Under the pieces are notes generated by a model. That model ran no database searches and was not told the origin of the DNA. It was given only the letters and a program-made list of their open reading frames with translations. From NCBI GenBank assembly GCA_041303415.1, contig JBFYPG010000100.1:3825-67824 (forward strand): 64,000 nucleotides of DNA. Direction: 5' to 3'. A program made the translations under genes and the position numbers. Positions 1,332 through 59,626 of the stretch are shown here, in pieces; the first letter of the stretch is position 1; every line of letters begins with the position of its first letter. The DNA comes from Bacteroidales bacterium (GTDB lineage Bacteria > Bacteroidota > Bacteroidia > Bacteroidales > VadinHA17).

Positions 1332-3281
1332 TCAATGTCTGAGCCATCCTTCAATGAAATTAACTGAGTATGGTTCAAGTTCAAAAGTTGTTTGGGAATG
1401 AACGATCTTTTCCTTTTCAGTACCTGTCCACCTGCTGTCTGAAACCGCATCAGCAAAGCTTGAAATATCGAGTGTCCTGTTCCTGAACAACCCTGAGCAG
1501 CAGTCTAAGGTCACCGGCTGGATTAAATCAGTAAAGTTCACCATTATCAGCTTTCCCTGCTTCCCGTCAGTAAGCGCCAGACACTCCACCTTCAGGGGAT
1601 GAGAGCTGACACTCTTAACGGCATTCCATGACTTGCTGCCAAGTACAGACCGGAATATGTAATAGAGAGGGAAGATCATGCCCCTGGCGGAGGGGAATGA
1701 TGACGGCCACATTGAGTCCGTTTCACCCTGAATGATGCCCCTCTCCCCTGCCGTCTCATAATAGGTAATACTTTCGGCTCCGGCTTCGGAAAGGTTTTTA
1801 ATGCTTCCAAGTGTCCAACAGGCGCCGAACAGCGACATTATTCTGCTGTCGATCTGCGGGGGCAATTCCGGTCCTGTCCGTGGTAATTCATGCAGCGAGG
1901 AATTCGCATTGAATCGTCTCTGTATTGTTACAGGAGAGACCAATACCCCCTTTTCTCCTGCAAATACCCGGGCGCTCTGCACTGTGTAAGCCTGTGCTGC
2001 CAGGTTTTCCGCAAGTGTCAGATTATCTGAAGCATGCTCCTGGGGGTGAACAGAATAACATATATTATCGTTACCTGTTTCCCCGGGCCTGTTCCTGTTT
2101 ATCTGAGCAAAGTTTGCATTTGTGCCTGTTGCGATCCTGATGCCTGGAATTGATTCCTTCAGCATGGGTATAACCTCCAGTGCCAGGGGATCGGGTGTTA
2201 CAGGTAAAGATTTATGGTAGAGCAGCAATGATGAAACTGATGGTCTTTTTTCTTCATACCATCTTATAAACTCTTTAATCTGTCCTGGTGCACCATCGTC
2301 TGTAAAGAGAGCCAGTTCCATCTGGTATCCGAGGTCTGACGACTCCACTGATGCCTGGGTTGCTTTTACCTGCCATTCAGGTCTGTACAAATGAAGGTCG
2401 GCCCTGTAATGGTCAAACTTTATTGACCTGAGCAGTTTAATCTCCTTTTTGCCGAGGGGAGCCGGGCGGCTTGACTGACAGATTCCAATAGACGGAAGCC
2501 TGTATGTAACATCAGGGAAAAGCTTTACCTGTGTTATACCGTCTTGTTCGTCATCTCCGTCAAAATTCCCTTCAGCCCGGAAAGTAATTTTCTGGAAAAT
2601 AACAGTTCCTTTTTCCAGGGTCACAGGGTAGGGGAGAGAGAGGGGCGTCGAATAGGTTTTAAATGAAGCATCACTCCAGTTCCTCTGGTCCTCGGTTTCA
2701 AAAACATCTCCTTCAAAGTCAAGCCTGCAGCTTGCTGAGCCTGATATCCAGCTCATTGACTTAATGTTCCTGAACACCTGGTTAGGGCTTACCTCTGAGG
2801 GAAAGCCGGTTTGTTCACGGGAGCCGTCGGAGTGTTCAATGACACAGCTTTTGCCTCCTTCAACAGGGTGGAGTACACATAATCCGATACGGTTTCTGAC
2901 AGATTTTTCAAGGACATTACCCTTCATCTCAAATGAAATGGTGTTATCAGCGCCTCCTGTAATAAGGTAATCTGAGCAGAAATTTATTTCATCAGACTGG
3001 TAGATGCAATTAATGACAACAGAGAAACTATTTTCAGTCCTGTCAATGTTTTTTACCGTAATTACAGGTTTTACAGTAAGCCAGTTCCTATCCCTTACTG
3101 CCGCAAATATCATCCTTATGATCTCCATATTTCCACAGGAGATATACCTCAACGAGCCTTCCGAATAGAGCATGGTAAGTTTACCTGCCCGCATTTTCGT
3201 CGAGCCTGGATGATTGGAAGAGCTTCCATATTGCATTTTCTCTGCCGGAAGAGTTCCGGCAAATTCCCTGATACTATTCAT
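1332..3281 (-). CDS. Uncharacterised 649-aa protein, no signal peptide; first gene of the permease/GH140-like operon
   Basis: Long uninterrupted ORF with ATG start and protein-like composition. I recognise no family motif. Same strand as the permease, 39 nt upstream of it. Confidence 0.6.
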   Translation of the reverse strand: MNSIREFAGTLPAEKMQYGSSSNHPGSTKMRAGKLTMLYSEGSLRYISCGNMEIIRMIFAAVRDRNWLTVKPVITVKNIDRTENSFSVVINCIYQSDEINFCSDYLITGGADNTISFEMKGNVLEKSVRNRIGLCVLHPVEGGKSCVIEHSDGSREQTGFPSEVSPNQVFRNIKSMSWISGSASCRLDFEGDVFETEDQRNWSDASFKTYSTPLSLPYPVTLEKGTVIFQKITFRAEGNFDGDDEQDGITQVKLFPDVTYRLPSIGICQSSRPAPLGKKEIKLLRSIKFDHYRADLHLYRPEWQVKATQASVESSDLGYQMELALFTDDGAPGQIKEFIRWYEEKRPSVSSLLLYHKSLPVTPDPLALEVIPMLKESIPGIRIATGTNANFAQINRNRPGETGNDNICYSVHPQEHASDNLTLAENLAAQAYTVQSARVFAGEKGVLVSPVTIQRRFNANSSLHELPRTGPELPPQIDSRIMSLFGACWTLGSIKNLSEAGAESITYYETAGERGIIQGETDSMWPSSFPSARGMIFPLYYIFRSVLGSKSWNAVKSVSSHPLKVECLALTDGKQGKLIMVNFTDLIQPVTLDCCSGLFRNRTLDISSFADAVSDSRWTGTEKEKIVHSQTTFELEPYSVNFIEGWLRH

Positions 3282-8894: not shown

Positions 8895-10736
8895 TCAATT
8901 CCGCCTGATCAGGCAAACCCAGTCTCTGCTGTCGTCCCCGGGTGGATTTCCGGTTGATCTGTAACCTCCTCCTGTGATTGATGTAATGTTTCCCTTCAGC
9001 AATTCACCTCCGTTGCGCGGATTGTACCAGGCAATATTGTAATTGCCTTCAGAAAGCAGGATATCAGCAGCTTTTGCTGTCGGAAGATAGAGAGCGTATA
9101 TGGATCCTTTCTTCGCGAAGCAGTAATCATCCTGATCACGTGTCAGATCATCAGCACTTTCCATCTCTGTGAAAGGCAGATTATTGTGAAAGAAATCAAG
9201 GGCAATTTTTGTCTGTTCCCACAGATTGTTACGGCTTCGCCAATCTTCACAGCTCAGGTCGGAGTGGGGGTAGTTATACCCGAAATACCATTCCACCCCT
9301 CCGCCTCCGGCCATGAGATTTCCCCAGAGCACTTTGTGCCTTATGGTGTCATGGGCAGGATCCATGGCATCAGGCATTGCTCCCTGCCAGTGCGGACCAA
9401 TTTCATCGATGCAGACAACCCACTTATGACCAGATTCTGCTGATCTGCTTATCCAGTGTTTTGCATCCTCATGAATTTCATTAATGTTACCGCACTGGAT
9501 TGACGGTCCCTCAACATTCCTGAATCCGAGGTATTGTGTCATATCTTTCAGTCGCTGCTGAGGGGCAGAATGAGTGTGAATAATGATGAAATTATCATAT
9601 GGATCAATTGCCCTCAGGTAATCGGCCATGAGCTTTGTGTCCCTGTAAGTCTGGCCGTATGGCGACCAGTCAGTTGGGTGGTGTTCCTCTCCAAGGTTCC
9701 ATGTTACTGCCAGGTGATGTGAAAAACGAGCGACCAGTTCCCTCAGATACAATTTGCGCTGCACATCGAGGTAACCGCAATCAAGAAGACATTCATTCTC
9801 GGTTTCCTGAAGAACAAAATGGAGCATAATACTAAGCTTCTCTGCATGAGAAAAAACAATTTCCCACTGGTCGAGCTTGCTGCAATCGAACCTGTATCTT
9901 TCGTTACGGTCAGTATAAGGCCACACGTCCTCTCCGTCGCCCAGGATGTTCATTGTGAGCATGTATACACTATTCATACCCTTGGACGACAGATAGTTGA
10001 GTGCTCCTACTATTCCTTTTCCCAGTCCGTTTTTCCATTGAGGATCGCCTTCTTTCCAGTCACTGATGTGAGGTTCATAAAGATGAAGTCCGCTGTTAGG
10101 AGCGGCCTCTCCGCTTCGCGCCTTATTGTTCCCCCCGTAATATGTTCCGTCAAAATCCCTGTATCCCAGGAAATTCTCAGGAGAGTCAGCCCCGCCTTTC
10201 AGAAACCCCTCACCGGTTCCTGCATATTTAAGATAATGTGTACCATCATATTTGAGCCGCCCTTTTATATGGAAATCAGGAGCCTGTTTATCGCTCTTTT
10301 TTATCCTCATTTCGCCGGCAGTTCCATTAAAATAACATTCTTGTCCCATGCCCGCATCATCTGCAATGGCAATGTTCCTTCCTTTGAGGAAGCTTACCTT
10401 ATAATTCCATATTCCATCAGACGGAGGACAAAAGTGAACCCGCCATTTGTTTCCTGATCTTGATGATGTTTCAGCAGCATTACCGTCTGCTGCAAAAAAC
10501 CCAGGCACCTCGAATTCCATATCTCCGCTGGAAAAGGATACGTTTAAAAGATAATCCAGAAAGGGATTTATTGTATCGTATTCAGCAGCATAAGGTCCTG
10601 TGAATGTCAGTGTTATTGTATGCCAGGTTTTCATCTCTCCGCTGATTTCTGTTGTTGAAGAGGATGAACAGGAGCCAAGAAATAAGAATAAAGCAAGCTC
10701 AAGGATAATGAGCCGAAGAATATTTGCTTTTTTCAT
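8895..10736 (-). CDS. Lipoprotein glycoside hydrolase of the DUF5060 + cellulase-like (DUF4038-related) type
   Basis: Signal and lipobox LFLGSC. N-terminal WHTITLTFTGP beta-sandwich signature I associate with DUF5060, followed by a TIM-barrel-like core (NSVYMLTMNILGDGEDVWPY, VTWNLGEE). Confidence 0.6.
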   Translation of the reverse strand: MKKANILRLIILELALFLFLGSCSSSSTTEISGEMKTWHTITLTFTGPYAAEYDTINPFLDYLLNVSFSSGDMEFEVPGFFAADGNAAETSSRSGNKWRVHFCPPSDGIWNYKVSFLKGRNIAIADDAGMGQECYFNGTAGEMRIKKSDKQAPDFHIKGRLKYDGTHYLKYAGTGEGFLKGGADSPENFLGYRDFDGTYYGGNNKARSGEAAPNSGLHLYEPHISDWKEGDPQWKNGLGKGIVGALNYLSSKGMNSVYMLTMNILGDGEDVWPYTDRNERYRFDCSKLDQWEIVFSHAEKLSIMLHFVLQETENECLLDCGYLDVQRKLYLRELVARFSHHLAVTWNLGEEHHPTDWSPYGQTYRDTKLMADYLRAIDPYDNFIIIHTHSAPQQRLKDMTQYLGFRNVEGPSIQCGNINEIHEDAKHWISRSAESGHKWVVCIDEIGPHWQGAMPDAMDPAHDTIRHKVLWGNLMAGGGGVEWYFGYNYPHSDLSCEDWRSRNNLWEQTKIALDFFHNNLPFTEMESADDLTRDQDDYCFAKKGSIYALYLPTAKAADILLSEGNYNIAWYNPRNGGELLKGNITSITGGGYRSTGNPPGDDSRDWVCLIRRN

Positions 10737-10757: not shown

Positions 10758-12209
10758 TCAGCTCCACAACCGGTCGTGCGAACGCCTGTCGTCCCACTCG
10801 GGTGTAGGTTCGAAATAACCTTTGGCCCTGGGATGCAGGTGCTTCCTTACTTCTTCTTCGTTCAGTTCGATGCCCAGACCAGGAGAATCGAGCGGCACAT
10901 TGGCGAACCCATTTGTTACCATTGGCTGGCTTCCTGTCATCCTTACAAGGTTTTCCCACCATGGGGTGTCAACACTGTGGTGTTCGAGAGCCAGAAAATT
11001 CTGTGTTGCTGCAGAACAATGTACATTGGCCATAAAGCATACGGGTGTCCCTGCCATGTGCATTGCCATTGCAACTCCGCACTCCTCGGCATAGTCGCCA
11101 ATCCTCTTTGTTTCAAGCAATCCTCCTGATGTTGCCAGGTCGGGGTGGATTATATCAACTGCACGGGCATCAAGAAGAGGCTTGAATCCGTCTTTAAGCA
11201 TGTAAATATCCTCCCCCGTACAGGTAGGCGTTTCGATCGCATCCGATACTGTTTTCCACTGATCGGTATAAAACCAGGGAACCATATCTTCCAGCCATGC
11301 AAGCCTGTACTTTTCCATCGCTCTTCCAAATCGTATGGAATTGTTAATATCAAAATGACCGAAGTGGTCAGCGGCGAGGGGCATCTCATATCCCACAGCA
11401 TTACGAACCTGTTCCACATATTCGGCCATTCCCTCGAGCCCCTTATCGGTGATCTGCACCTGGGTAAAAGGATGAAGGGTGTTTCCGTAGCCCATGTATG
11501 TCCTCAGGTCGTACTGGCCGGTCGCCCCATCCCAGAATTTTGAATTTACTATTGTATCCGGCTGATTTGCAACTACATGAATACCGAGATCCATCTTGAG
11601 CCATGTAAATCCCTGTTCCTCAACGCGCCGCTTCATGGTTTGCGCAAATGTGACAGGGTCCTTTGCCCCGGGGGTATCGGCATACAGGCGGATCTTATCC
11701 CTGTACCTGCCGCCCAGGAGCTGCCAGGCCGGAACACCATAGGCTTTTCCGCAAAGATCCCAGAGGGCCATCTCAACTGCGCATACTCCTCCTCCTTGCC
11801 TTCCGTGGTAACCCCACTGCCTGATTATCTTGAATATCATTTCAACATTGCAGGGATTCAGTCCCAGAATCCTGCTTTTAAGCATGAGCGCGTACCTCTC
11901 GTCTGCGCCGTCCCTCACTTCACCAAGCCCGGAGATTCCCTGATTAGTATCTATCCTTATAATTGCCGTTCGTCCAACATTCCCGACCACGGCGACACGC
12001 ATGTCGGTGATCTTGAGGTCGGAGGGGCTTGAAGCCCTGCTCACTCCGGAAGTTGTCTGAGCGATCATGTCCTCAAACGAAAGTGCCATGAGCCCTCCAA
12101 GAGCCACTCCTCCCATAGCCGTTTTTTTCAGGAAGCTGCGCCTATTGCTATTCTTACCCTGTTCCGACTGACTTTCCTGCTTCCTTATTTCTTCAATGAT
12201 TTTTTTCAT
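10758..12209 (-). CDS. Enolase-superfamily (mandelate racemase/acid-sugar dehydratase-like) enzyme with twin-arginine signal
   Basis: Trimmed to ATG at 12209 (MKKIIEE..). TAT motif SNRRSFLKK plus an h-region. MR/MLE-like core (AVEMALWDLCGKAYGVPAWQLLGG, KMDLG, LEDM). The track N-terminus (GVRRQAS x5) reads through a heptamer DNA repeat. Confidence 0.8.
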   Translation of the reverse strand: MKKIIEEIRKQESQSEQGKNSNRRSFLKKTAMGGVALGGLMALSFEDMIAQTTSGVSRASSPSDLKITDMRVAVVGNVGRTAIIRIDTNQGISGLGEVRDGADERYALMLKSRILGLNPCNVEMIFKIIRQWGYHGRQGGGVCAVEMALWDLCGKAYGVPAWQLLGGRYRDKIRLYADTPGAKDPVTFAQTMKRRVEEQGFTWLKMDLGIHVVANQPDTIVNSKFWDGATGQYDLRTYMGYGNTLHPFTQVQITDKGLEGMAEYVEQVRNAVGYEMPLAADHFGHFDINNSIRFGRAMEKYRLAWLEDMVPWFYTDQWKTVSDAIETPTCTGEDIYMLKDGFKPLLDARAVDIIHPDLATSGGLLETKRIGDYAEECGVAMAMHMAGTPVCFMANVHCSAATQNFLALEHHSVDTPWWENLVRMTGSQPMVTNGFANVPLDSPGLGIELNEEEVRKHLHPRAKGYFEPTPEWDDRRSHDRLWS

Positions 12210-12251
12210 ATGATTAAGTTTTAAATTTCCTTTCGGTTCAGATTTACAGGT

Positions 12252-12353
12252 CGCCTGACGCCTGACGCCTGACGCCTGACGCCTGACGCCTGACGCCTGA
12301 CGCCTGACGCCTGACGCCTGACGCCTGACGCCTGACGCCTGACGCCTGACGCC
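12252..12353. repeat. Tandem heptamer array (CGCCTGA) about 14.5 units
   Basis: Perfect 7-nt periodicity read directly. Lies between the RraA-like stop (12359) and the enolase-family ATG (12209). Confidence 0.95.
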
Positions 12354-12358
12354 GTTCA

Positions 12359-13291
12359 TTACCAATTTCTTTCCTTAAAATAGTTATCCAGCTCCTGCTT
12401 TGACATTGGAAGCTTACCCGGGTAATTGCTGAGCCAGTTCATGAAATCCTTCCTGATCTCATCGCTCCACTGGCTGTCGATCTGGCCGGGCTTGTATGTT
12501 CCTTCACGAAGCCTCTGGTGCCCGAACTGGTCACGCAGTGCAGTTACCTCGGAAGTTATCACAAGCTCTTCAACAAGGTGAGAGGGTATGAATATCACGC
12601 CGTATTTTTTTGCCAGCACTACATCGCCGGGCAGAACTGTTGCGCGGCCTATGCGTACCGGAGCATTTATTGAAACGAGCGACATCTGCATGATGTACGA
12701 TGGATCAGAGCCCTTGATCCATCCGTTGAAGCCTTCTATCTCACTCAATCCCTCAACATCCCTTACTGAGCCGTAGAAAATTACTCCCCGTTTCGACTTC
12801 GAATAGATTGAATTGCCAAGATTGTCACCTATGAGAGTTCCGTCTATTATCTTGCCATAGCTGTCGGCAACATAAACATCGCCTTCCACAAGCACATCTA
12901 TGGGCCAGGAGTTTGTGCCTCCCTGCTGTGCCCGGTTTTCAGCTTTCCCCTTTTCTTTTATATACTTCTCAAAGTCAGGTCTGAGAGGCATATACTGTGC
13001 GGTTACCACTCTTCCTGTCATTACTTCATCAGGATGAATGATGGTCCAGTCACCTTCGAACTGATTCATATAGCCTTTGTTGCGAAGTACTCCCCAGGCC
13101 TCCTCTATAGAGATGTTTTTTAATCGTTCCAGGATCGAATCCGGAACTTTTGGCCTGCCATCATCAAACCTTTCACCTTTCCATTCAGAAGTCAGCGCCC
13201 TGATACATTCAGGCGGAGATCCTACATTCTGTGCTCCTGCTGCATAAACAGCAGACAATAAAATCGTTATTAAAAGTGACTTTTTAATCAT
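12359..13291 (-). CDS. RraA-family protein (RraA / HMG-aldolase-like fold) with Sec signal peptide
   Basis: Signal MIKKSLLITILLSAVYAAGA-QN. Core motifs GDVYVAD.., GDNLGNS, RGVIFYGSVRDVEGL, VLPGDVVLAKKYGVIFIP match the RraA/dimethylmenaquinone-methyltransferase-like family. Confidence 0.7.
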   Translation of the reverse strand: MIKKSLLITILLSAVYAAGAQNVGSPPECIRALTSEWKGERFDDGRPKVPDSILERLKNISIEEAWGVLRNKGYMNQFEGDWTIIHPDEVMTGRVVTAQYMPLRPDFEKYIKEKGKAENRAQQGGTNSWPIDVLVEGDVYVADSYGKIIDGTLIGDNLGNSIYSKSKRGVIFYGSVRDVEGLSEIEGFNGWIKGSDPSYIMQMSLVSINAPVRIGRATVLPGDVVLAKKYGVIFIPSHLVEELVITSEVTALRDQFGHQRLREGTYKPGQIDSQWSDEIRKDFMNWLSNYPGKLPMSKQELDNYFKERNW

Positions 13292-13326: not shown

Positions 13327-14325
13327 TTACGTTCCTGCGTATACCAGCAGTGCAAGTCCCGCGAGATAGGCAAGGAACATGGCTACTATCAATAAGTTAA
13401 CCTGTTTTGTTGCTCCTTTGAATTCTTTCCATATAAATACTCCCCACAGAGCGGCAATTAGAGTGGCACCCTGTCCAAGACCATAGGAGATAGCAAAGCC
13501 TGCTTTTTCCGAAGCGAGTATGCTCATTGCCATTCCGATATTCCAGATTATGCCCCCCAGTATTCCTGTCAGATGTACTTTTACACTTCCGTTTGTATAG
13601 TCTTTGAACGAGAGAGGCGCACCTTCAAAAGGCTTCTTCATAATGATATAGTTGAAGATCAGGTTGCTTAGCAGCACACCGATGGCAAAAAAGAAAACTG
13701 CGGAGTAGGGGGTAAGCTTGCCTGCTTCGGGTGACACAAAATCGGTTGCCATGGAGCTGGCCACGAACCGGTAGAAAAGAGCCATCAGGACTCCCGCCGA
13801 GACTGACAGCATTATTCCTTTCCCGGATACCTTCTGCTGTGATGAACTGTGCTTCTTGTAGGCTATAGCGTCAATGATTATCGCGACAACGATGAGTGCG
13901 AGGCCGGTGAACAGGATAGTGGGATTGCCTTTGGGCACGGCGATATAGTTAATAATCACACCGAGGGCCAGGGCAATGCCGACACCAACCGGAAAGGCAA
14001 CAGCCATGCCGGCTATGGACATGGCCGCCACAAGCAGGATATTTGAAGCATTGAAGATTACGCCCCCGAGCATTGAATTGAGAATGTTGCCGGTATCTGC
14101 CTGTGAAATATCTTCAATGAAGCTCCGTCCGCTCTCCCCTGTGCTGCCCATTGTGAAGCCGAGGGTCACTGCAAAAAGCAGGATGCCGATTACATAGTCC
14201 CAGTAGAAGAGCTCAAACCTCCATGATTTTCCTGCGAGCTTCTGGGTGTTGCCCCATGATCCCCAGCAGAGCATGGTGATTATGCAGAGAATGACGGCGA
14301 GTGAGTAGGTTTGCGGTATGAACAT
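13327..14325 (-). CDS. DMT-superfamily sugar permease (GRP/RhaT-like), paralogue of 291..1292
   Basis: 332 aa, colinear with 291..1292 ([41 protein letters not shown]); roughly half the positions are identical by eye. Confidence 0.6.
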   Translation of the reverse strand: MFIPQTYSLAVILCIITMLCWGSWGNTQKLAGKSWRFELFYWDYVIGILLFAVTLGFTMGSTGESGRSFIEDISQADTGNILNSMLGGVIFNASNILLVAAMSIAGMAVAFPVGVGIALALGVIINYIAVPKGNPTILFTGLALIVVAIIIDAIAYKKHSSSQQKVSGKGIMLSVSAGVLMALFYRFVASSMATDFVSPEAGKLTPYSAVFFFAIGVLLSNLIFNYIIMKKPFEGAPLSFKDYTNGSVKVHLTGILGGIIWNIGMAMSILASEKAGFAISYGLGQGATLIAALWGVFIWKEFKGATKQVNLLIVAMFLAYLAGLALLVYAGT

Positions 14326-14465: not shown

Positions 14466-16076
14466 TTATTCATAAGAAAACTTGAAATTATCACTTTTTT
14501 TCGGAGACGTTTTAAAAATTGTCGCTCCGGTTAAATAAACCTTTGTTCCTTCCGATTCGGGACGCTTTTCTCCCCGCACGACAACCCTGATCTTATGCTC
14601 TCCCTGCTGCAGTCCGGTAACATGCCATAGAGTCTCAACGTGCTGCTGGTTTGCAAAGTAATAGTAGGTGTCAATGGTGCGATGAAATTTGCCATCCACA
14701 AACAGATCGGCCTTTCCGCCATCCCTGAACCAGTTTCCGGTAAGTGCTATCCCGGTTCCGCTGAAAGCTATCTCGAGCTCATCACCTTTATTCTGTGCAA
14801 ACATGGATTGCTTTACAGGCTGACCACTGCGGTCGCTTGCCTCCTGAATTTTCCATTCCCCCCTGAAGGTCCATGAACCATCATCGAAAATAGAAACTCT
14901 TTTGTCAAAGACCAAGTCGGGGAATGAAACCTCAATCGGGGGTGCGACCGGGTCCTGCACTTTTACACTGATTGTTCTGCCGGCAGTTGTCCCGCCGTTT
15001 TCTGCTATCAGGTCAAGTGCATATTTATATGTGCTTTCAACAGCAGAATTGAAAGAGTAAGAAGTGTGGATGAAGACCGAGTCGCCTATATTCTTTATTC
15101 CTTCCTGCATTCCGGCAGGCAGACTGCTGAATCCGCTTATTACACCGAGCACAGCAAGGGCGTTCGACGGATTACAATCCGAATCCTGACCGCAGCGGGT
15201 TGATACTTCCAGGGTCTTCATTGGATCGCCTTCACCATAAAGCAGTCCCATTGCTATATAGGCTCCGTTAAGCTTTGCGTCAATGTTAAAAGGATCGCCG
15301 GCCCCGCAGATATCAACATCACCCCATTTGTTTTCAAGCTCCTTCCATGCAGCCCTCCAGTCATCAGGATAATGCCCGTGCAGCTTTATGACATCCTTTA
15401 TTATCCGGCAATAATCGCTTTCTGAGGGTATCGATTTCAATGCCTTTTCCAGAATAAGCGCTATATCTGATTCAAAGTAAGCCCCGGCATAAAGAGCTGC
15501 TACAAATACTCCTCCATAGACTCCGTCACCGTAATTCATTATATGCCCGATTCTGTCAGCAATCTTAAGCGCTGTTTGCGGCATCCCGGGGCACATGAAG
15601 CCGATATAGTCAGCTTCTATCTGGAAATCAATATCATCCGCATGGATATTGTACTCAGGACTCCCTGAAAGAGGCGCAAAAACAGAGTCGTAGTAATTCT
15701 TTCGGGCCTGCATATTTGCATGCCACAAAGGGTAACCGGCTTTAGCGAACAGCTCTTGGTATTTTTTCACAGGCGCATCAATTCCGTATTTGTCCATAGC
15801 CATCAGGAATGTAAGCTGGACATACAGGTCATCCTGCCATATACTTCCTTTAATGTCTTCCGGCTTCCATTTTATTGAATCCTCGTAAGTAGCTGCCCTG
15901 GCCCTGAATTCAGTGGGTCCCCCGTATGTGACGCCGATCATCTTGCCGGCCCATCCCCCGGCGATCTTGTCTTTAAGGACTTCGGGATCAATGGTTTTGA
16001 ATTCAGCCTCTTTGTTACTGCATGAGGTTAGGAGCAGTAATAAGATAAAGTTAACAAGTGAAGTAATAGTTTTCAT
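14466..16076 (-). CDS. Lipoprotein ADP-ribosylglycohydrolase-family protein with C-terminal beta-sandwich (CBM-like) domain
   Basis: Trimmed to ATG 16076 (MKTITSLVNFILLLLLTSC lipobox). ARH-family motifs GGWAGKMIGVTYGGPTEF and CGQDSDCNPSNALAVLG. The last ~190 aa are beta-rich (WTFRGEWK.., HKIRVVVRGEK). Confidence 0.75.
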   Translation of the reverse strand: MKTITSLVNFILLLLLTSCSNKEAEFKTIDPEVLKDKIAGGWAGKMIGVTYGGPTEFRARAATYEDSIKWKPEDIKGSIWQDDLYVQLTFLMAMDKYGIDAPVKKYQELFAKAGYPLWHANMQARKNYYDSVFAPLSGSPEYNIHADDIDFQIEADYIGFMCPGMPQTALKIADRIGHIMNYGDGVYGGVFVAALYAGAYFESDIALILEKALKSIPSESDYCRIIKDVIKLHGHYPDDWRAAWKELENKWGDVDICGAGDPFNIDAKLNGAYIAMGLLYGEGDPMKTLEVSTRCGQDSDCNPSNALAVLGVISGFSSLPAGMQEGIKNIGDSVFIHTSYSFNSAVESTYKYALDLIAENGGTTAGRTISVKVQDPVAPPIEVSFPDLVFDKRVSIFDDGSWTFRGEWKIQEASDRSGQPVKQSMFAQNKGDELEIAFSGTGIALTGNWFRDGGKADLFVDGKFHRTIDTYYYFANQQHVETLWHVTGLQQGEHKIRVVVRGEKRPESEGTKVYLTGATIFKTSPKKSDNFKFSYE

Positions 16077-16104: not shown

Positions 16105-16217
16105 GTTACACAGAGTTTCACAGAGAAAGCACAGAGTTCCACAGAGCGTTAGATGGCTGTAACCCTCCGTGGATCTCTGTGTATCCTCCGTCCCGAGTAC
16201 TCGGGACTCTGTGTAAC
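16105..16217. repeat. Long imperfect palindromic element of the CAC-N-GAG word family
   Basis: Perfect 11-bp termini GTTACACAGAG / CTCTGTGTAAC. Internal CACAGAG x4 words and the hairpin GTCCCGAGTACTCGGGAC. Fills the gap between the nucleoside hydrolase stop and the ARH start. Confidence 0.9.
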
Positions 16218-17206
16218 TATTTTTTATTCATAGGTATATGCATCATTCTGTCTTCAATGAATTTTGCCATTTCAGGTACGGGCATTTTCTGAATTACATA
16301 GGTATGGTTTCCTTCAGGATCATCCACCCAGGTGTTGCTGCCATCCTCGTTGACTATTATCCTGCCTCTTTTCGTATCAAAGAATCCTTCAGCCCCATAT
16401 ACTCCGATAAGCACTGCAGTTTCATCCCAGCTCATGCGGCCATATTTGTCTTCTTCCGACATGGGAATACTCATACTGAATACATCTTTTACGGGGCTGT
16501 TGCTGACAGGAGATTCTATCAGCCTCAGTCCGGTCCTTATTTCCCATCCGATCTCAAATCCAGTGAATATTATTTCGCCCGGCCAGTTCTCGAATACAAA
16601 TTTTGAAGAAACAGAATCTATATAAATGTTGAACTCCTTTCCTTCCGGGAATTTGCCTGCCATTGATACAAGCAGCCTGACCTTTTCAGAAACCAGGTCT
16701 ATCCCATTTAGAGGGCTGTGATCGTCGGGTCCAGATTTAAGAAGGCCTGCCAGGTTTGTCAGAAATCCGACTGTGACAATTGTCACGCTTTTATCCGGCT
16801 GCGACATCAGGATCTCACGGTAAACATCAACAGCATCCCTGACCTCAGATGTGGAATTTACGTGGTGGGGGTACTTTGCCACCAGGGAATCGGGCCATTT
16901 CTGCCATGCACCCATATCAGCCCCGTAACCTATTGGTGCTCCAAGAGGAAGATCAGGTCGGCCAAAATATGTGTTTATGACATCTATAGAAGGTGCAACG
17001 AGCTTGTGCCTGTTTGACGAAACCGTAGTCAGTATTTCTGCCAGGCCGCTGTCGGCTGTTGCATGAAGAAAAGCAAGGGCTCCGACATCGTCATAATCAG
17101 GGCCGAGGTCAGTATCGAAAATGATATTCACCTTTTCATCGGCAGGGCCGGAGCAGCCTGTAAAAGAAAGTAGTGCCCCCATGCAGGCAATTATGACATA
17201 TTTCAT
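16217..17206 (-). CDS. Lipoprotein nucleoside hydrolase (inosine/uridine-preferring family)
   Basis: Signal and lipobox LLSFTGC. N-terminal IIFDTDLGPDYDDVGALAFL aspartate cluster typical of the IUNH family. Confidence 0.8.
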   Translation of the reverse strand: MKYVIIACMGALLSFTGCSGPADEKVNIIFDTDLGPDYDDVGALAFLHATADSGLAEILTTVSSNRHKLVAPSIDVINTYFGRPDLPLGAPIGYGADMGAWQKWPDSLVAKYPHHVNSTSEVRDAVDVYREILMSQPDKSVTIVTVGFLTNLAGLLKSGPDDHSPLNGIDLVSEKVRLLVSMAGKFPEGKEFNIYIDSVSSKFVFENWPGEIIFTGFEIGWEIRTGLRLIESPVSNSPVKDVFSMSIPMSEEDKYGRMSWDETAVLIGVYGAEGFFDTKRGRIIVNEDGSNTWVDDPEGNHTYVIQKMPVPEMAKFIEDRMMHIPMNKK

Positions 17207-17225: not shown

Positions 17226-18128
17226 TTATACTATAACCTCTTCCCTGTAAGGTGCGGAGCTCTGTGCTCCCATCCTCGTCACGCAAATGGATGCTGCCTT
17301 GTTTGCGAATATCACAGCTTCCCTTAGCTCTTTTCCTTCAGCGAATGAAACAGCAAGGGCAGCATTGAAAACATCCCCTGCGCCGGTGGTATCAATGGCT
17401 TTGACTTTTACACCCGGGAACATTTCGGTAAATTCCCCGGTTTTTACAAATGCCCCGGCCGCACTCATGGTGATAATCACATTCTTCACTCCTTTCTTCA
17501 GCAGGTAGGTTGCAGCAGCATCAGCTGTAGTTTCGTTGTGCACCTTGATGCCTGTCAGTATACTGGCTTCTGTTTCATCCGGTGTGATCAGCCACAGATG
17601 CTTAAGGAGATAATCGTGAAGCTTCTGCGCGGGAGCAGGATTCAGTATAACTTTAATTTTGTTTTCAGATGCCGTAATTGCGGCATATTCGACTGTCATG
17701 AGCGGGATCTCAAGCTGAAGCAGCATTACTCCATATTTGCCTGGAGTAAAGACCTCATTGTCAATATCCTGAACGAGAAGGTTGCCGTTCGATCCGGGCG
17801 CGACGACAATACTGTTCTCTCCTTCGGAGTCAACCGTAATAAGGGCAACACCTGACGGAAGTTCGGTATCTTTTACGATGTACCGCGTGTCAATACCCTC
17901 TTTCTTGAGTATGCCTGTAGTCTCGCTTCCAAACAAGTCATCGCCTATTTTTGCCACAAAAGTTATCTTCCCTCCGAGGCGTGCGGCTGCAACTGCCTGA
18001 TTTGCACCTTTGCCTCCGGGATTCATAAGGAATGTGCCTCCGAGGATCGTTTCTCCGGGTGAAGGGATTTTGTCAGTTTTAATTACCATATCGGTATTGG
18101 AACTGCCGATAACGAGGATCTTTTTCAT
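17226..18128 (-). CDS. rbsK: Ribokinase
   Basis: 300 aa PfkB fold: VIGSSNTDMV, GGKGANQAVAAARLGG, C-terminal DTTGAGDVFNAALA. First gene of the minus-strand array. Confidence 0.85.
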   Translation of the reverse strand: MKKILVIGSSNTDMVIKTDKIPSPGETILGGTFLMNPGGKGANQAVAAARLGGKITFVAKIGDDLFGSETTGILKKEGIDTRYIVKDTELPSGVALITVDSEGENSIVVAPGSNGNLLVQDIDNEVFTPGKYGVMLLQLEIPLMTVEYAAITASENKIKVILNPAPAQKLHDYLLKHLWLITPDETEASILTGIKVHNETTADAAATYLLKKGVKNVIITMSAAGAFVKTGEFTEMFPGVKVKAIDTTGAGDVFNAALAVSFAEGKELREAVIFANKAASICVTRMGAQSSAPYREEVIV

Positions 18129-18170
18129 AGGTCAGGAAATTATGCTGTTATATTGTACCGAATGTAATAC

Positions 18171-18178
18171 TATTTTTG
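18171..18178 (+). promoter_or_regulatory. Candidate -7 box (TATTTTTG) for the BASS-kdgK-GH88 operon
   Basis: Matches TAnnTTTG about 125 nt upstream of ATG 18303. The -33 element is weak. Confidence 0.35.
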
Positions 18179-18302
18179 CTCAATTAAAAAGATAATGATC
18201 CTGAAAAAAAGCATTTATTTTTAAAATTCCCGGGGTTTATGGGCAATATTGTCCAATTGTTTATCTTTAAAATGTAAAGTGCCGGATATATTTTACAAAA
18301 TA

Positions 18303-19601
18303 ATGCAAACAAAGTATTACAGGTATCTGCTATTTGTTACACTCGCTATTTTTGCCGGTGCCATATCCGCATTTCTTTTCAGGAAAACTGAGCTTGGCGG
18401 TATGATGATGATCGCGGGCTTCATCGCCCTTGCCTGGGGGGTAAGAGGCTATCCTGCGCTTAAAGGATTTTCATATACGCTATGGATATTTACTGCAGTT
18501 ACAGCTTCGATGTTCTTCCCGCAGTATTTCACATCAATAGGCAAATTCCAGCTTAAGAGCATGATAGTTCCCCTGCTTCAGGTAATCATGTTCGGGATGG
18601 GTTCCCAGATGAGCTTTGAGGATTTCAAGGGTGTGATCAAAATGCCAAAAGGTGTTCTGATTGGGATATTTTCACAGTTTACTATCATGCCGCTGGTCGG
18701 CTTAACGATCGCCCGGATGTTCAATTTTCCTCCTGAGATAGCGGCAGGGATCATCCTGATAGGATGCGTACCTAGCGGACTTGCATCCAATGTAATGTCA
18801 TTCCTTGCAAAGGCTAACCTTGCCCTGGCCGTAACCATCAGCGCAGTTACAACACTGCTCTCGCCATTCATAACACCGGTACTTATGAAATGGATCGGAG
18901 GCCAGTTCATAGAGGTAGATTTCTGGAGCATGATGCTTGATATCCTGAATATGATAATCCTTCCGATAATTGCCGGATTCATGTTCAATCTTTTTGCACG
19001 GAAAAGTGCCGGACGATCATCATTCATAATCCAGCTTATTGTTTATCCTGTGATAATCCTGATGACAACCCTTGTGTTTGCCAGGGCACGGAGTGCCGGA
19101 ACAGGCGAATTTTTTATCCAGTTCCTCAAGTCGCTTGCATGGTTCTATTTCCTTCCGATGGCCGGAGGGGTTTTAATGTCGCGAAACCTCAGGGGCAACA
19201 ACAGGATAATGGAAAGAGTGCTTTCATTTGTCTCAATGGCTGGTATTGCAGTGATAGTCACCATCATAACTGCTTCAGGCAGGGAGAGCCTGCTTCAGGT
19301 GGGGGCTCTGCTTATGGTGACCAGCCTGATTCATAACCTTTCCGGATATACACTCGGGTATACCATCTCCTGGCTCTTCGGGATGCCTGAAAGAGACCGG
19401 CGCACAATAGCGTTCGAAGTCGGCATGCAGAACGGTGGTCTCGCTTCCGGCCTTGCCTTGCAGATGGGGAAAATTGCAACCGTGGGTCTTGCTCCTGCGA
19501 TCTTTGGACCTCTCATGAACATTACAGGATCCGTACTCGCAAATTGGTGGAGAGGTCATGAACCAGCAACCAGCAACCAGCAACCAGCAACAAGTAACTG
19601 A
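18303..19601 (+). CDS. Bile acid:sodium symporter (BASS/SBF-like) family transporter
   Basis: Trimmed to the first ATG (18303). Polytopic, with GCVPSGLASNVMSFLAKANLALAVT and FEVGMQNGGLA motifs. The last 13 codons (EPATSNQQPATSN) are encoded by the AACCAGC heptamer array. Confidence 0.75.
   Translation: MQTKYYRYLLFVTLAIFAGAISAFLFRKTELGGMMMIAGFIALAWGVRGYPALKGFSYTLWIFTAVTASMFFPQYFTSIGKFQLKSMIVPLLQVIMFGMGSQMSFEDFKGVIKMPKGVLIGIFSQFTIMPLVGLTIARMFNFPPEIAAGIILIGCVPSGLASNVMSFLAKANLALAVTISAVTTLLSPFITPVLMKWIGGQFIEVDFWSMMLDILNMIILPIIAGFMFNLFARKSAGRSSFIIQLIVYPVIILMTTLVFARARSAGTGEFFIQFLKSLAWFYFLPMAGGVLMSRNLRGNNRIMERVLSFVSMAGIAVIVTIITASGRESLLQVGALLMVTSLIHNLSGYTLGYTISWLFGMPERDRRTIAFEVGMQNGGLASGLALQMGKIATVGLAPAIFGPLMNITGSVLANWWRGHEPATSNQQPATSN
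19561..19598 (+). repeat. Tandem heptamer array (AACCAGC)x4 plus AACAAGTAAC
   Basis: Read directly. It encodes the C-terminal tail of the BASS transporter and ends 11 nt before the kdgK ATG. Confidence 0.95.
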
Positions 19602-19609
19602 AATCAAAT

Positions 19610-20641
19610 ATGAAAGTCATTACATTCGGAGAGATAATGCTTCGCCTGGCAACGCCTGGGCATCAGAGGATATCGCAGGTGACTTCCTACTGCGCTTCAT
19701 TTGGTGGAGGGGAGGCCAACGTGGCTGTTTCACTGGCCAATTTCGGATTGCATGCAGAATTCGTAACCCGCCTTCCACAGAACGACCTGGGTGATTCAGT
19801 GATCATGGAACTAAGGAAGCACAATGTCGGAACAAACCATATACTAAGAGGCGGAGAAAGACTTGGCATATATTTCCTCGAAACAGGCTCAGTGTCGCGG
19901 CCAGGCAAAGTCATTTATGACAGGGCTAATTCTGCAATTGCCGAAATCAAACCCGGAATGATCAGCTGGGAAGAGATATTCAGGGAAACCCAATGGTTCC
20001 ACTGGACCGGTATTACTCCGGCTATCTCAGAAGGAGCGGCCGCAGTATGTCTTGAGGCTGTGAAGGCAGCGAGAAAGAGCGGGATAATCATCTCATGTGA
20101 CCTTAATTTCAGAAAGAATCTTTGGAAATGGGGCAAAACGGCATCAGAAGTGATGCCAGAACTGGTGAAGGAGTGCGATATTATCCTTGGCAACGAAGAG
20201 GATGCAGATAAGGTGTTCGGGATCAAACCCGAAGGAGCCGATGTGTTCAGGGGCGAAGTCAGGGGAACAAGCTACGAATCTGTATGCAAAAAGCTGAAAG
20301 CCAGATTTCCGCAGGCAAAAAAAATAATAATAACCCTCAGGGGATCGGTTAGCGCCGACCACAATTCATGGTCAGGCGTGCTCTATGACGGCAGGAAGCT
20401 TTACGAGGCCCCGGTATACCAGATAACGCATATTATTGACAGGGTGGGAGGGGGCGACTCTTTCATGGCAGGCATCATTTACGGCATGCTCGCATTCCCT
20501 GATAATGACCAGAAGACCCTCGATTTTGCGGTTGCCGCTTCATGCCTGAAACACACAATACACGGTGATTTCAATCTCGTAACTGTCGGTGAGGTCGAAC
20601 AACTGATGAAAGGTGATAAATCGGGCCGGGTAATGCGCTGA
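19610..20641 (+). CDS. kdgK: 2-dehydro-3-deoxygluconokinase
   Basis: 343 aa PfkB kinase: MKVITFGEIMLRL, GGGEANVAVSLANFG, DRVGGGDSFMAGIIYG, the KdgK-type pattern. Confidence 0.8.
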   Translation: MKVITFGEIMLRLATPGHQRISQVTSYCASFGGGEANVAVSLANFGLHAEFVTRLPQNDLGDSVIMELRKHNVGTNHILRGGERLGIYFLETGSVSRPGKVIYDRANSAIAEIKPGMISWEEIFRETQWFHWTGITPAISEGAAAVCLEAVKAARKSGIIISCDLNFRKNLWKWGKTASEVMPELVKECDIILGNEEDADKVFGIKPEGADVFRGEVRGTSYESVCKKLKARFPQAKKIIITLRGSVSADHNSWSGVLYDGRKLYEAPVYQITHIIDRVGGGDSFMAGIIYGMLAFPDNDQKTLDFAVAASCLKHTIHGDFNLVTVGEVEQLMKGDKSGRVMR

Positions 20642-20668: not shown

Positions 20669-21856
20669 ATGAAAAAGACAATTATTATTACAATATGCCT
20701 GTCGATGATCATCTTATCATCATGCAGGAAAGAAAAAGACATGAAAGAGATCATCGACGAATCATTCCTTGCGGGACTAAGGCAATACAGCCTGCTGGCT
20801 GAGGTTATGAAAGAGAAGCCTGATCTTCTGCCCAGGACGATCGATGAGAATGGCAACCTGGTAACCGCCGGCTCCGGATGGTGGACATCAGGGTTCTTCC
20901 CGGGAAGCCTCTGGCTTATATATGAATATTCAGGTGATGAAAAGATAAAGGAGTTAGCCATACAGATGACTTCCCGGGTGGAAAAGGAGAAGAACAACAC
21001 CGGAACACATGATCTCGGGTTCATGATGTATAACAGCTTCGGCAACGGATTGAGGCTGACCGGCGAAGAGAGTTATGAGGAGGTTCTGCTGACATCGGCA
21101 AGGTCGCTCTCAACCCGGTTCAGACCTAATATCGGATGTATCCAGTCATGGGGAAGCAACTCAAAGTGGCAGTGCCCCGTGATAATTGATAATATGATGA
21201 ACCTCGAACTGCTCATGTATGCTTTCAGCGTAACAGGCGACTCCTCGTTTTACAATATATGCATCAGCCATTCCGATACGACCATTAAAAATCATTACAG
21301 GCCTGATTACAGCTCCTGGCATGTTGTTTCATATGATACGATTACCGGTGGGATACAGGTGAAGCAGACCCACCAGGGTGCTGCTGACGGGTCAGCATGG
21401 TCGCGCGGCCAGGTGTGGGGGCTTTACGGGTATGTAACGATGTACAGGGAGACAAAGCTTCAGAGATATCTCGACCATGCGATTCATATAGCTGATTTCC
21501 TGATAAGCCATCCGAATATGCCGGATGACGGGATACCATACTGGGATTTCGATGCTCCCGGCATACCTGACGCCAGGCGCGATGCATCGGCAGGAGCGAT
21601 AATGGCATCAGCACTTATCGATCTGTGCCGGTTCACGGATGAGGAAACAGCGAAGAAATATCTTGATTTCGCAGAGAAGCAGCTAAGAAGCCTTGCTTCT
21701 GATGAGTACCTGGCTAAAGAGGGAGAGAACGGATTTTTTATTCTGAAGCACGGCGTTGGACATCTTCCCGGTAACAGTGAAGTTGATGTACCGCTTACAT
21801 ATGCAGATTATTATTTTCTTGAAGGTCTGCTCAGATACCGGTATTTTACCGATTAA
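20669..21856 (+). CDS. Lipoprotein glycoside hydrolase family 88 (unsaturated glucuronyl hydrolase-like)
   Basis: Lipobox ILSSC. GWWTSGFFPGSLWLIYEYSGD and WSRGQVWGLYG motifs typical of GH88. 27 nt after kdgK. Confidence 0.8.
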   Translation: MKKTIIITICLSMIILSSCRKEKDMKEIIDESFLAGLRQYSLLAEVMKEKPDLLPRTIDENGNLVTAGSGWWTSGFFPGSLWLIYEYSGDEKIKELAIQMTSRVEKEKNNTGTHDLGFMMYNSFGNGLRLTGEESYEEVLLTSARSLSTRFRPNIGCIQSWGSNSKWQCPVIIDNMMNLELLMYAFSVTGDSSFYNICISHSDTTIKNHYRPDYSSWHVVSYDTITGGIQVKQTHQGAADGSAWSRGQVWGLYGYVTMYRETKLQRYLDHAIHIADFLISHPNMPDDGIPYWDFDAPGIPDARRDASAGAIMASALIDLCRFTDEETAKKYLDFAEKQLRSLASDEYLAKEGENGFFILKHGVGHLPGNSEVDVPLTYADYYFLEGLLRYRYFTD

Positions 21857-33290: not shown

Positions 33291-33380
33291 TTGGTTGCTG
33301 GTTACTGGTTGCTGGTTGCTGGTTACTGGTTGCTGGTTGCTTGTTGCTGGTTGCTTGTTGCTTGTTGTTGGTTACTTGTT
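33291..33380 (-). repeat. Tandem heptamer array, about 13 units of AACCAGC/AACAAGC/AGTAACC as read on the minus strand
   Basis: The plus strand reads GGTTGCT/GGTTACT/GCTTGTT units. The array ends 1 nt from the E2 start codon (33289). Confidence 0.95.
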
Positions 33381-46099: not shown

Positions 46100-46231
46100 G
46101 GCATTAAGGCATTAAGGCATTAAGGCATTAAGGCATTAAGGCATTAAGGCATTAGGGCAATAAGGCAATAGAGCATTAAGGCTTTAGGGTATTGGGGTCT
46201 TAACGCCTTAACGCCTTATCGCCTTAAAGCC
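46073..46231. repeat. Octamer array followed by its own inverted complement
   Basis: The array is 2x AAAGGCGT, 8x perfect TAAGGCAT and about 6 degenerate units (46073-46200). The inverted part is CTTAACGCCTTAACGCCTTATCGCCTTAAAGCC (46199-46231). It spans the gap between convergent genes and overlaps both stop codons, so it may act as a bidirectional terminator-like hairpin. Confidence 0.9.
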
Positions 46232-59555: not shown

Positions 59556-59626
59556 AATTAACTAATAACTAATAACTAATAACTAATAACTAATAACTAA
59601 TAACCAATAACCAATTACTAATAACC
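59556..59626 (+). repeat. Heptamer array of about 10 units: (AATAACT)5(AATAACC)2 AATTACT AATAACC
   Basis: Same family and same ACT-then-ACC unit order as 38663-38701. Upstream of the S9 peptidase start and merges into the palindromic element at 59623. Confidence 0.9.

Follow-up and report, generated by a model that had tools for sequence, protein, structure and literature searches.

The enolase-superfamily proteins most comparable to the one considered here are DgoD/GalD, the ManD subgroup and the uncharacterised protein 2qq6 from Rubrobacter xylanophilus, which share with it a two-domain enolase fold, a 26/26 spacing of the metal ligands and an Asp-His dyad on strands 6 and 7. To our knowledge, all characterised GalD/ManD-type members are cytoplasmic, and more generally we know of enolase-superfamily sugar-acid dehydratases and of RraA/aldolase-fold proteins only from the cytoplasm. 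Among the RraA-fold enzymes, the HMG/CHA aldolase 3noj (238 aa) belongs to a cytoplasmic pathway of aromatic degradation and uses 4-hydroxy-2-oxo acids, a class of compounds that includes the products of enolase-type dehydratases. Sugar oxidation outside the cytoplasm is represented by the PQQ glucose dehydrogenase/gluconate route of pseudomonads and by the Tat-exported Gfo/Idh/MocA oxidoreductases of Bacteroidota, but the periplasmic routes that we know of stop at oxidation, while dehydration of the acid and C-C cleavage follow import. Of the long-form RraA-family enzymes, FlDet from Flavobacterium sp. UMI-01, a 2-keto-3-deoxy-D-glucarate dehydratase/decarboxylase, is the only one characterised from a sugar-acid pathway; its closest characterised relative is RraAS2 (PMC8563752). 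FlDet is cytoplasmic, because its native N-terminus begins with Met-Thr-Thr.

The window analysed here, a stretch of 64,000 nucleotides from a Bacteroidales bacterium of the VadinHA17 lineage, contains neighbouring genes for an enolase-superfamily protein and a long-form RraA-like protein, both with predicted export signals. The pair lies in an operon together with exported ribosyl-hydrolase-fold lipoproteins, a sugar permease and a ribokinase, and a second group of genes diverges from this operon:

8895-10736, minus strand: glycoside-hydrolase-like lipoprotein (DUF5060 / Collagen_bind_2), last gene of the operon
10758-12209, minus strand: enolase-superfamily gene (MR subgroup, GalD/ManD-like), 483 aa, predicted N-terminal Tat signal
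12060-12209, minus strand: predicted Tat signal region, enolase residues 1-50 (from TIGR01409 and conservation)
12252-12353: heptamer tandem array of 14.6 copies, unit GGCGTCA on the coding strand, all matches perfect (100%)
13291-12359, minus strand: long-form RraA-like protein, 310 aa (Pfam RraA-like), predicted Sec-type signal at residues 1-20
13327-14325, minus strand: GRP/RhaT-GlcU family sugar permease, same operon as the pair
14466-16076, minus strand: ADP-ribosylglycohydrolase-fold protein (Pfam ADP_ribosyl_GH 1.2e-27) with a C-terminal beta-sandwich-like part
16217-17206, minus strand: inosine-uridine nucleoside hydrolase-fold protein (Pfam IU_nuc_hydro 5.2e-15)
17226-18128, minus strand: cytoplasmic ribokinase, first gene of the operon (TIGR02152, 351.5 bits against a cut-off of 299.65)
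18303-19601, plus strand: BASS (SBF) family transporter, divergent from the operon, start ATG 18303 (Pfam SBF 1.5e-39)
19610-20641, plus strand: KdgK-like kinase of 2-dehydro-3-deoxy sugar acids, 8 nt downstream of BASS
20669-21856, plus strand: GH88-like lipoprotein

The ADP-ribosylglycohydrolase-fold protein is probably a lipoprotein (MKTITSLVNFILLLLLTSC), and the same is probable for the nucleoside hydrolase-fold protein judging from its N-terminus. Within NCBIfam, the BASS transporter scored 215.5 bits with the PanS-like model and 209.4 bits with the bass model. This PanS-like best match and a homologue of ApnL-like lactonases at 1332-3281 provide a lead towards D-apionate that is limited to this window.

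The first-pass annotation had proposed that the enolase-family reading frame, once trimmed of a repeat-derived extension, opens with a twin-arginine motif, and the analysis of the start codon bears this out. The mechanically called frame (12365-10758, TTG start, 535 aa) owes its false N-terminal extension to the heptamer array in the spacer, as its first 52 residues are the translated tandem repeat; it was rejected as repeat read-through that also overlaps the stop codon of the upstream RraA-like gene. The spacer between the two genes comprises 149 nt including the array, and that of the close relative L007 has 78 nt and lacks it. We place the start of the enolase gene at ATG 12209, upstream of the twin arginines, which yields the N-terminus MKKIIEEIRKQESQSEQGKNSNRRSFLKKTAMGGVALGGLMALSFEDMIAQTT and a protein of the same 483-aa length as in the gene calls for close relatives. 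A start 3' of the twin arginines, which in the earlier annotation would have removed the signal, was likewise rejected because the region shows conservation at the protein level and the starting Met-Lys aligns in homologues: M1, K2, R23, R24, F26, L27 and K28 are invariant among 16 homologues with 63-79% identity over the N-terminal stretch.

The enolase-superfamily protein thus carries a conserved, predicted Tat export signal, which consists of a charged n-region of 22 residues, R23-R24 (nt 12143-12138) within the motif SNRRSFLKK, and the h-region TAMGGVALGGLMAL. It fits the S/T-R-R-x-F-L-K pattern followed by a moderately hydrophobic stretch, and TIGR01409 recognises residues 22-40 with 21.2 bits (curated cut-off 16.7). 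Cleavage possibly occurs after MIA. RR-x-FLKK and the hydrophobic stretch are kept in 103 of 106 enolase copies from 80 other species, and the organism encodes a TatC of its own (233.7 bits, contig C98). In the predicted models the domains of both proteins are confident, whereas fold confidence is low or absent in the signal regions, with an AlphaFold pLDDT below 50 at residues 15-60 of the enolase and a predicted catalytic domain that begins near residue 62.

Both halves of the enolase fold, the N-terminal capping domain and the modified TIM barrel, were recognised by Pfam (MR_MLE_N, PF02746, 5.7e-10; MR_MLE_C, PF13378, 2e-45), and the best solved relative is 2qq6, by sequence (1.7e-60) as well as by fold (TM 0.87 for the AF2 model). 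In contrast to GalD and ManD, the protein lies far below every equivalog cut-off, the best NCBIfam scores being 174.8 bits for galactonate dehydratase (cut-off 311) and 155.8 bits for ManD (cut-off 550), and its clade is set apart by the Tat signal and by a conserved N-terminal extension of about 15 residues with the consensus V-x-R-x-S-S-P-S-D-L. A cytoplasmic sister group retains this extension, as V-N-T-x-S-x-P-S-x-L, but has no signal. The earlier annotation had considered a non-enzymatic paralogue with missing catalytic residues. Invariance of the metal ligands and of the His-Asp base argues that the protein is not a degenerate paralogue: K205, D281, H282, H285, E307, E333, D357, H384 and E409 do not vary among homologues of 46-85% identity. 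D281, E307 and E333, at the ends of strands 3, 4 and 5, are the three carboxylate metal ligands and align with D/E/E of 2qq6; H384 (strand 7) and D357 (strand 6) form the general-base dyad, and the spacing of the catalytic residues presumably matches that of GalD in the E. coli numbering. The general acid, however, departs from the expected D-x-H: where 2qq6 has D-M-H and 2gl5 has E-I-H, the protein reads D281-H282-F283-G284-H285, so that the D+2 His is replaced by Phe, and D-H-x-G-H is invariant in the clade. Given this replacement, the enzyme could be an epimerase or a cycloisomerase, or could carry out an elimination on another class of substrates.

The RraA-like protein was matched by Pfam RraA-like (PF03737, 5.7e-16) and by the long-form model PRK08245 (8.4e-27). 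Its best solved relative by sequence is RraAS2 (5x15, 3e-15), with 3noj at 5e-9, and Foldseek comparisons of the predicted model (pLDDT 85.5) with 5x15, 3noj and 3k4i gave E values of 1e-13 to 1e-14. The top structural match, 5ir2, deposited as 'novel cellulase', was given no weight because we found no paper for it. Compared with the HMG/CHA aldolase 3noj, with which it shares the RraA fold (Foldseek E 7e-14), the protein is longer (310 aa), only about 19% identical, and has a signal peptide and additional N- and C-terminal helices. The G-D and V-R-D motifs align with D102 and R123-D124 of the aldolase, the latter two being its catalytic Arg and metal-binding Asp. R177-D178, the counterpart of R123-D124, is invariant in the family, as are many of the surrounding Gly and Asp positions, while D156, the equivalent of D102, is the majority residue but is conserved in less than 90% of the family.

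A cleavable Sec signal had already been noted for this protein, and the same architecture was found in its homologues. The N-terminus MIKKSLLITILLSAVYAAGA, followed by QN, has a positive n-region, a hydrophobic core of 14 residues and an A-x-A site; the layout is MIKK-SLLITILLSAVYA-AGA before QN, without a lipobox Cys, and a hydrophobic N-terminus followed by A-Q is present in all full-length homologues from 80 other species loci. The RraA-like protein hence also carries a conserved, predicted export signal, of the Sec type, and the signals of both proteins appear conserved across several hundred or more species of Bacteroidota.

The pairing itself extends across the phylum. In 61 of 80 species loci the distance from the enolase gene to an RraA-like gene is at most 312 bp (15 of the 80 show no such gene), and in the phylum sample an RraA-like gene adjoins an enolase copy in 10 of the 12 other enolase-positive genomes. 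Among 401 sampled genomes, 22 carry the RraA-like gene, and the 13 that carry the enolase all belong to these 22. The neighbourhood of the two genes is not due to chance. BASS transporter genes neighbour the pair in 39-42 of the 80 loci and SusC genes in 31-33, which makes enolase, RraA-like protein and BASS transporter the conserved triad, with SusC/SusD as frequent neighbours. KdgK occurs in 11 of the 80 loci, with Eda in some of the same clusters, and no aldehyde dehydrogenase, including alpha-KGSA dehydrogenase, recurs among the neighbours of the pair in the 80 loci. Tat-exported Gfo/Idh/MocA enzymes, lactonases and PQQ quinohaemoprotein dehydrogenases are found beside the pair in related loci. 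One strand-consistent cluster (L016) combines SusC, SusD, a PQQ quinohaemoprotein dehydrogenase, a gluconolactonase, four dehydratases, the RraA-like protein, BASS, KdgK and Eda. Since enolase copies often outnumber RraA-like copies in gene arrays, up to 6:1 in L046, an obligate 1:1 heterocomplex of the two proteins looks unlikely.

The RraA-like and BASS genes are also found with other exported enzymes. They are accompanied by a second type of Tat-exported enolase in L107, L110 and L111, by Tat-exported UxuA-type dehydratases in L016 and L021 (7 of 80 loci), and in L102-L105 and L108 by a Tat-exported PLP-dependent ammonia lyase of the DgaE family, a Tat-exported RidA and an exported deacetylase-type amidohydrolase. 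All these families of eliminating enzymes have characterised members that make 2-oxo-3-deoxy sugar acids. Because genomes with the RraA-like and BASS genes but without the enolase under study carry other Tat-exported eliminating enzymes, we read the RraA-like protein and the BASS transporter as a common lower module that would handle 2-oxo-3-deoxy acids, a reading that is new here. The first-pass annotation had recognised the enolase/RraA-like pair but missed both the BASS transporter and the alternative eliminating partners.

Taking these observations together, we think it reasonably probable that the products of the two genes are periplasmic enzymes that work as a pair and together make up one unit of a route for sugar-acid uptake. 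The conserved export signals point to a so far undescribed periplasmic step of sugar-acid breakdown and, unlike in the known periplasmic routes, an elimination and one further reaction seem to take place in the periplasm here. The enolase-type enzyme would fold with its metal in the cytoplasm, probably as an oligomer, before export by Tat, whereas the RraA-like protein would leave unfolded via Sec. In the periplasm, the enolase-type enzyme would use its invariant catalytic residues to remove the proton alpha to the carboxyl group of an acid sugar and to eliminate the beta-hydroxyl, with a 2-oxo-3-deoxy acid as the product. The acid sugar probably originates from a complex glycoside or glycan of plant origin. 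From its context, the RraA-like enzyme may act on this 4-hydroxy-2-oxo acid through its metal/Arg-Asp site, most likely by a class-II-type retro-aldol cleavage to pyruvate and an aldehyde, or alternatively by a dehydration as in FlDet. The resulting 2-oxo acid would be imported by the BASS transporter and its breakdown finished by cytoplasmic kinases and aldolases.

A two-step periplasmic conversion had already been suggested from the sequence of the window. Conservation of both export signals supports the periplasmic location, but the second step may be a reaction other than aldol cleavage to pyruvate and an aldehyde, given that FlDet is a dehydratase/decarboxylase and that KdgK and Eda are present in some operons. 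The position of KdgK 8 nt downstream of BASS in the window, and the occurrence of KdgK and Eda in some clusters, suggests import of an intact 2-oxo-3-deoxy hexonate and thereby argues against complete periplasmic aldol cleavage. It is only as a tentative and rather doubtful generalisation that we propose a non-phosphorylative, Entner-Doudoroff-like lower pathway located in the periplasm of Bacteroidota, in which several unrelated Tat-exported eliminating enzymes (two enolase-superfamily clades, the UxuA type, and the DgaE type with RidA) would deliver a 2-oxo-3-deoxy sugar acid, a dedicated secreted RraA-fold aldolase would cleave it, and BASS would import the pyruvate.

Of the other explanations, the one that survives best keeps the localisation and the first step but has the RraA-like enzyme dehydrate a 2-oxo-3-deoxy aldarate or pentonate (with decarboxylation in the case of aldarates) to 2,5-dioxopentanoate, i.e. 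alpha-ketoglutarate semialdehyde, for import by BASS, so that the pair would catalyse the initial two reactions of an oxidative uronate/aldarate or Weimberg-type route that has been relocated to the periplasm. FlDet (237 aa) performs such a conversion of 2-keto-3-deoxy-D-glucarate to alpha-KGSA (PMC8563752) and resembles the window protein as a long-form RraA-family enzyme of a Bacteroidota sugar-acid pathway with a 2-oxo-3-deoxy acid as substrate; the two are linked through RraAS2, the nearest characterised relative of FlDet and the best solved relative of the window protein. The match to long-form PRK08245, the classical role of enolase-superfamily aldarate dehydratases in the preceding step, and a CE15 glucuronoyl esterase beside the pair in L011 together with the GH88-like gene in the window are also compatible with such a route. 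However, besides being cytoplasmic, FlDet accepted only the aldarate derivative and not KDG, and the context with a DgaE-type lyase would yield KDG-type products rather than aldarates. Moreover, the FlDet gene adjoins an alpha-KGSA dehydrogenase gene, and the lack of a recurring aldehyde dehydrogenase near the pair argues against this route, which we consider unlikely.

Still less probable is that the enolase-type enzyme attacks an imported oligosaccharide or glycoside at a residue that carries a carboxylate, for example by proton abstraction at uronate C5 with 4,5-elimination or by epimerisation, after which the RraA-like protein would process the released or modified keto-acid. A periplasmic site would be easier to rationalise for a reaction at the level of the glycan: many loci follow SusC/SusD, importers of oligomers, the operon in the window is full of exported glycosidase-fold lipoproteins, a GH88-like enzyme, of a kind acting on 4,5-unsaturated uronates, is encoded nearby, and D-H-x-G-H and the V-x-R-x-S-S-P-S-D-L extension separate the clade from known monosaccharide dehydratases. 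Yet we know of no enolase-superfamily enzyme that acts on a glycoside, GH88 occurs in only 6 of the 80 loci, and the lactonases, PQQ dehydrogenases, gluconokinase-like and KdgK genes elsewhere fit free sugar acids better. Finally, a role without catalysis for one or both proteins in the periplasm, for instance of the RraA-like protein as a ligand-binding or regulatory partner of BASS by analogy to E. coli RraA, which works by binding proteins (the fold comparison also matched the structures 2yjv and 1q5x), would agree with the adjacency to BASS as the most persistent one, which survives replacement of the enolase, but is very improbable in view of the invariant catalytic Arg-Asp pair and its surroundings, of closest relatives that are long enzyme-like forms instead of 160-aa regulators, and of BASS transporters not being known to us to use binding proteins.

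In the literature that we searched (Tat with enolase superfamily, RraA with signal peptide or polysaccharide utilisation, and old annotation names), the exported pair is not described, and the single co-occurrence match does not discuss the family (PMC5507952). Cultured and tractable strains carry the family, among them Adhaeribacter aquaticus DSM 16391, Mongoliibacter ruber DSM 27929, Dyadobacter sp. 3J3 and Saonia flava DSM 29762, so that the question is directly testable. If the periplasmic enzyme pair proves true, part of sugar-acid catabolism would move to the periplasm, in association with importers of the SusC/SusD type and a BASS carrier, and enolase-fold enzymes would join the list of Tat cargo. 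The large uncharacterised family of long-form RraA proteins would gain a physiological role, and SusCD loci without glycoside hydrolases would be explained. Should the Entner-Doudoroff-like reading hold as well, the cell would import a central metabolite rather than many different sugars.

The enolase-superfamily gene and the RraA-like gene are members of a tightly packed minus-strand operon running from 18128 to 8895, as delimited by ORFs and Pfam/NCBIfam profile matches. A 174-nt divergent region (18129-18302), which is likely a regulatory region shared by both operons, separates this ribokinase-headed operon from a BASS-KdgK-GH88 operon.

Gene content of the two divergent operons
Operon gene 1, minus strand: ribokinase (TIGR02152, 351.5 bits, above cut-off)
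Operon gene 2, minus strand: nucleoside-hydrolase-fold lipoprotein
Operon gene 3, minus strand: ADP-ribosylglycohydrolase-fold lipoprotein
Operon gene 4, minus strand: GRP/RhaT-type permease
Operon gene 5, 13291-12359, minus strand: RraA-like protein
Operon gene 6, 12209-10758, minus strand: enolase-superfamily protein
Operon gene 7 (last), minus strand: DUF5060/Collagen_bind_2 lipoprotein, hydrolase-like
Start ATG 18303, divergent from the operon: BASS (SBF) transporter
8 nt after the BASS gene: KdgK-like kinase
Downstream of the KdgK-like kinase gene: GH88-like lipoprotein

All soluble products of the minus-strand operon except the kinase carry export signals. The same set of pair, two ribosyl-hydrolase-fold lipoproteins, DUF5060 lipoprotein, permease and ribokinase was found in about ten Bacteroidales MAGs. 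At 1332-3281 on the minus strand, a 649-aa protein without Pfam match, which reaches 255.8 bits against the NCBIfam model of D-apionate lactonase ApnL (below the cut-off of 750), heads an operon that holds a second GRP permease and has a possible link to the catabolism of the branched-chain sugar apiose. Together with this nearby lactonase homologue and the BASS-KdgK-GH88 unit, the operon content suggests as substrate a plant-derived glycoside or glycan of complex structure that contains a pentofuranose and an acid sugar.

The first-pass annotation had assigned a twin-arginine signal to the enolase and a Sec signal to the RraA-like protein, and both assignments held up. Alignment with 16 homologues places the true enolase start at ATG 12209, upstream of the arginine pair and not downstream of it. 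The initial Met-Lys, R23-R24, F26, L27 and K28 are shared by all of these homologues, which differ in the length and sequence of the charged n-region between Met-Lys and RR. Residues 22-40 match the Tat signal model TIGR01409 with 21.2 bits (curated cut-off 16.7), TatC is encoded in the same genome, and in the AlphaFold model residues 15-60 lack confident structure and the enolase fold that follows them is confident. In the 80 best loci, 103 of 106 enolase copies have the RR motif, the three exceptions being truncated or mis-started calls. The n-region (12144-12209) is unusually long, with 22 residues in the window protein and about 35 in most of the aligned homologues; it is charged and probably helical with a conserved M-K-x-I/L start, and a Tat proofreading chaperone could dock there. 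An enolase sister group without signal peptide (P0252, P0265, P0267, P0270 and P0360, some of which may be truncated gene calls) keeps the N-terminal extension V-N-T-x-S-x-P-S-x-L-x-I-T-D, which makes the Tat signal an addition to an enzyme clade that already existed. The N-terminus of the RraA-like protein, MIKKSLLITILLSAVYAAGA followed by QN, has the standard form of a Sec signal, including an A-x-A site, and all full-length homologues in 80 other species share this architecture.

A 535-aa enolase ORF from a TTG codon was rejected, as it starts inside the RraA-like stop codon and continues across a perfect (GGCGTCA) x 14.6 array (12252-12353) in the intergenic spacer upstream of the enolase gene; in a close relative, this spacer comprises 78 nt and lacks the array. 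Short tandem arrays of 7-8-nt units, perfect or nearly so and with up to 14.6 copies, occur all over the window (12252-12353, 33292-33373, 46074-46186, 59559-59625 and nine more) and may be fast-expanding microsatellites that alter the spacing of co-transcribed genes.

Within the mandelate racemase subgroup, the GalD/ManD part comes closest to the enolase, which according to NCBIfam is the equivalog of no named enzyme; the PDB title of the nearest structure, 2qq6, states no function. The catalytic residues that a non-enzymatic paralogue might have lost are present: the metal ligands D281, E307 and E333, the D357-H384 dyad, K205 and E409 are all invariant among homologues of 46-85% identity. 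In contrast to 2qq6 (D-M-H) and 2gl5 (E-I-H), which carry a general-acid His two residues past the first ligand, the window enolase has Phe, and an invariant D-H-x-G-H motif of its clade holds this Phe at D+2. From these residues, the enzyme appears able to abstract the alpha-proton and probably also to carry out beta-elimination with a relocated acid.

Both families are very large and strongly conserved (at least 8000 candidates each; 78-92% identity among the best 120 of at least 8000 matches per family), and the pair has been conserved as a unit. Among 401 genomes sampled evenly across the phylum, 13 have the enolase (counted at E <= 1e-60) and 22 have the RraA-like protein, all 13 being among these 22; an RraA-like gene adjoins an enolase copy in 10 of the 12 other enolase-positive genomes, from eight families. 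Scanning one genome per species retrieved relatives in at least 595 genomes. The best 80 loci of these, from Bacteroidales, Cytophagales, Sphingobacteriales, Chitinophagales and Flavobacteriales including cultured strains, contain an RraA-like gene in 65 cases (in 61 of them no more than 312 bp away from an enolase gene), a BASS gene in 39-42, SusC in 31-33 and SusD in 30. Recurrent neighbours in these 80 loci are Zn-dependent dehydrogenases, class II aldolases, ribokinase-, KdgK- and gluconokinase-like kinases, and Gfo/Idh/MocA oxidoreductases and UxuA-type dehydratases with Tat signals. Tandem amplification of enolase genes is frequent, with arrays of 2-4 copies in several genomes and a maximum of six Tat paralogues followed by one RraA-like gene in Adhaeribacter aquaticus DSM 16391 (L046, 8289-18328).

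Nine sampled genomes with the RraA-like protein and without the window-type enolase were inspected. In three, a second, shorter Tat enolase type adjoins RraA-like and BASS genes; one has only SusCD, lactonase, BASS and RraA-like protein. In the other five (L102, 6131-11216; L103, L104, L105 and L108), a Tat-signal DgaE-family PLP ammonia lyase (TIGR01437, 196.7 bits) adjoins the RraA-like gene, with BASS adjacent in four. These five also encode one or two Tat-signal RidA proteins and exported deacetylase-type amidohydrolases, and some a glucose/sorbosone dehydrogenase-cytochrome c fusion and a lactonase; they are candidates for a periplasmic amino-sugar-acid deamination route. Including the Tat UxuA-type dehydratases, four unrelated eliminating-enzyme families, most members found carrying a Tat signal, thus occur beside one RraA-like and BASS pair. 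In all four families, characterised members eliminate water or ammonia to give a 2-oxo-3-deoxy sugar acid. The simplest reading is that an acid of this kind is the common intermediate. The cluster L016, with SusC, SusD, PQQ quinohaemoprotein dehydrogenase, gluconolactonase, two enolase-type and two UxuA-type dehydratases, RraA-like protein, BASS, KdgK and Eda, shows what would be the whole route in one place.

We lean slightly towards a model in which the exported enzyme would carry out a periplasmic elimination to a 2-oxo-3-deoxy sugar acid, the RraA-like enzyme would convert this acid in a further step, and the product would enter the cell through BASS. As a long form, the RraA-like protein matches PRK08245, with RraAS2 (5x15) and the HMG/CHA aldolase (3noj) as best solved relatives. 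Its invariant R177-D178 aligns with the catalytic R123-D124 of the aldolase; the window protein has the G-D motif, which is not invariant family-wide. The best structural match of the predicted RraA-like structure, 5ir2, was deposited under the title 'novel cellulases from microbes associated with the gut ecosystem', and a literature search found no paper behind it.

The reaction established for the fold (3noj) is a retro-aldol cleavage, in which a 4-hydroxy-2-oxo acid gives pyruvate and an aldehyde. For the RraA-like enzyme it would require nothing further and would suit BASS as carrier of a small 2-oxo acid; however, KdgK and Eda genes lie within some of the same clusters, and the window KdgK follows BASS at 8 nt, suggestive of import of the keto-deoxy hexonate in intact form. 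Within the model, we still regard the aldolase as roughly twice as likely as the reaction of FlDet from Flavobacterium sp. UMI-01, a dehydration/decarboxylation giving alpha-ketoglutarate semialdehyde (PMC8563752). Family proximity favours the latter, but FlDet did not accept KDG (PMC8563752) and no aldehyde dehydrogenase recurs among the neighbours in the best 80 loci. Less probably, the enolase may act on glycoside-bound acids, or one or both proteins may have a non-catalytic role.

In the open papers and preprints searched, we found no description of an exported enolase-superfamily or RraA-family enzyme. Judged from the sequences, the folds and chemistries are familiar, and what appears to be new is the compartment, the pairing and the link to a transporter.
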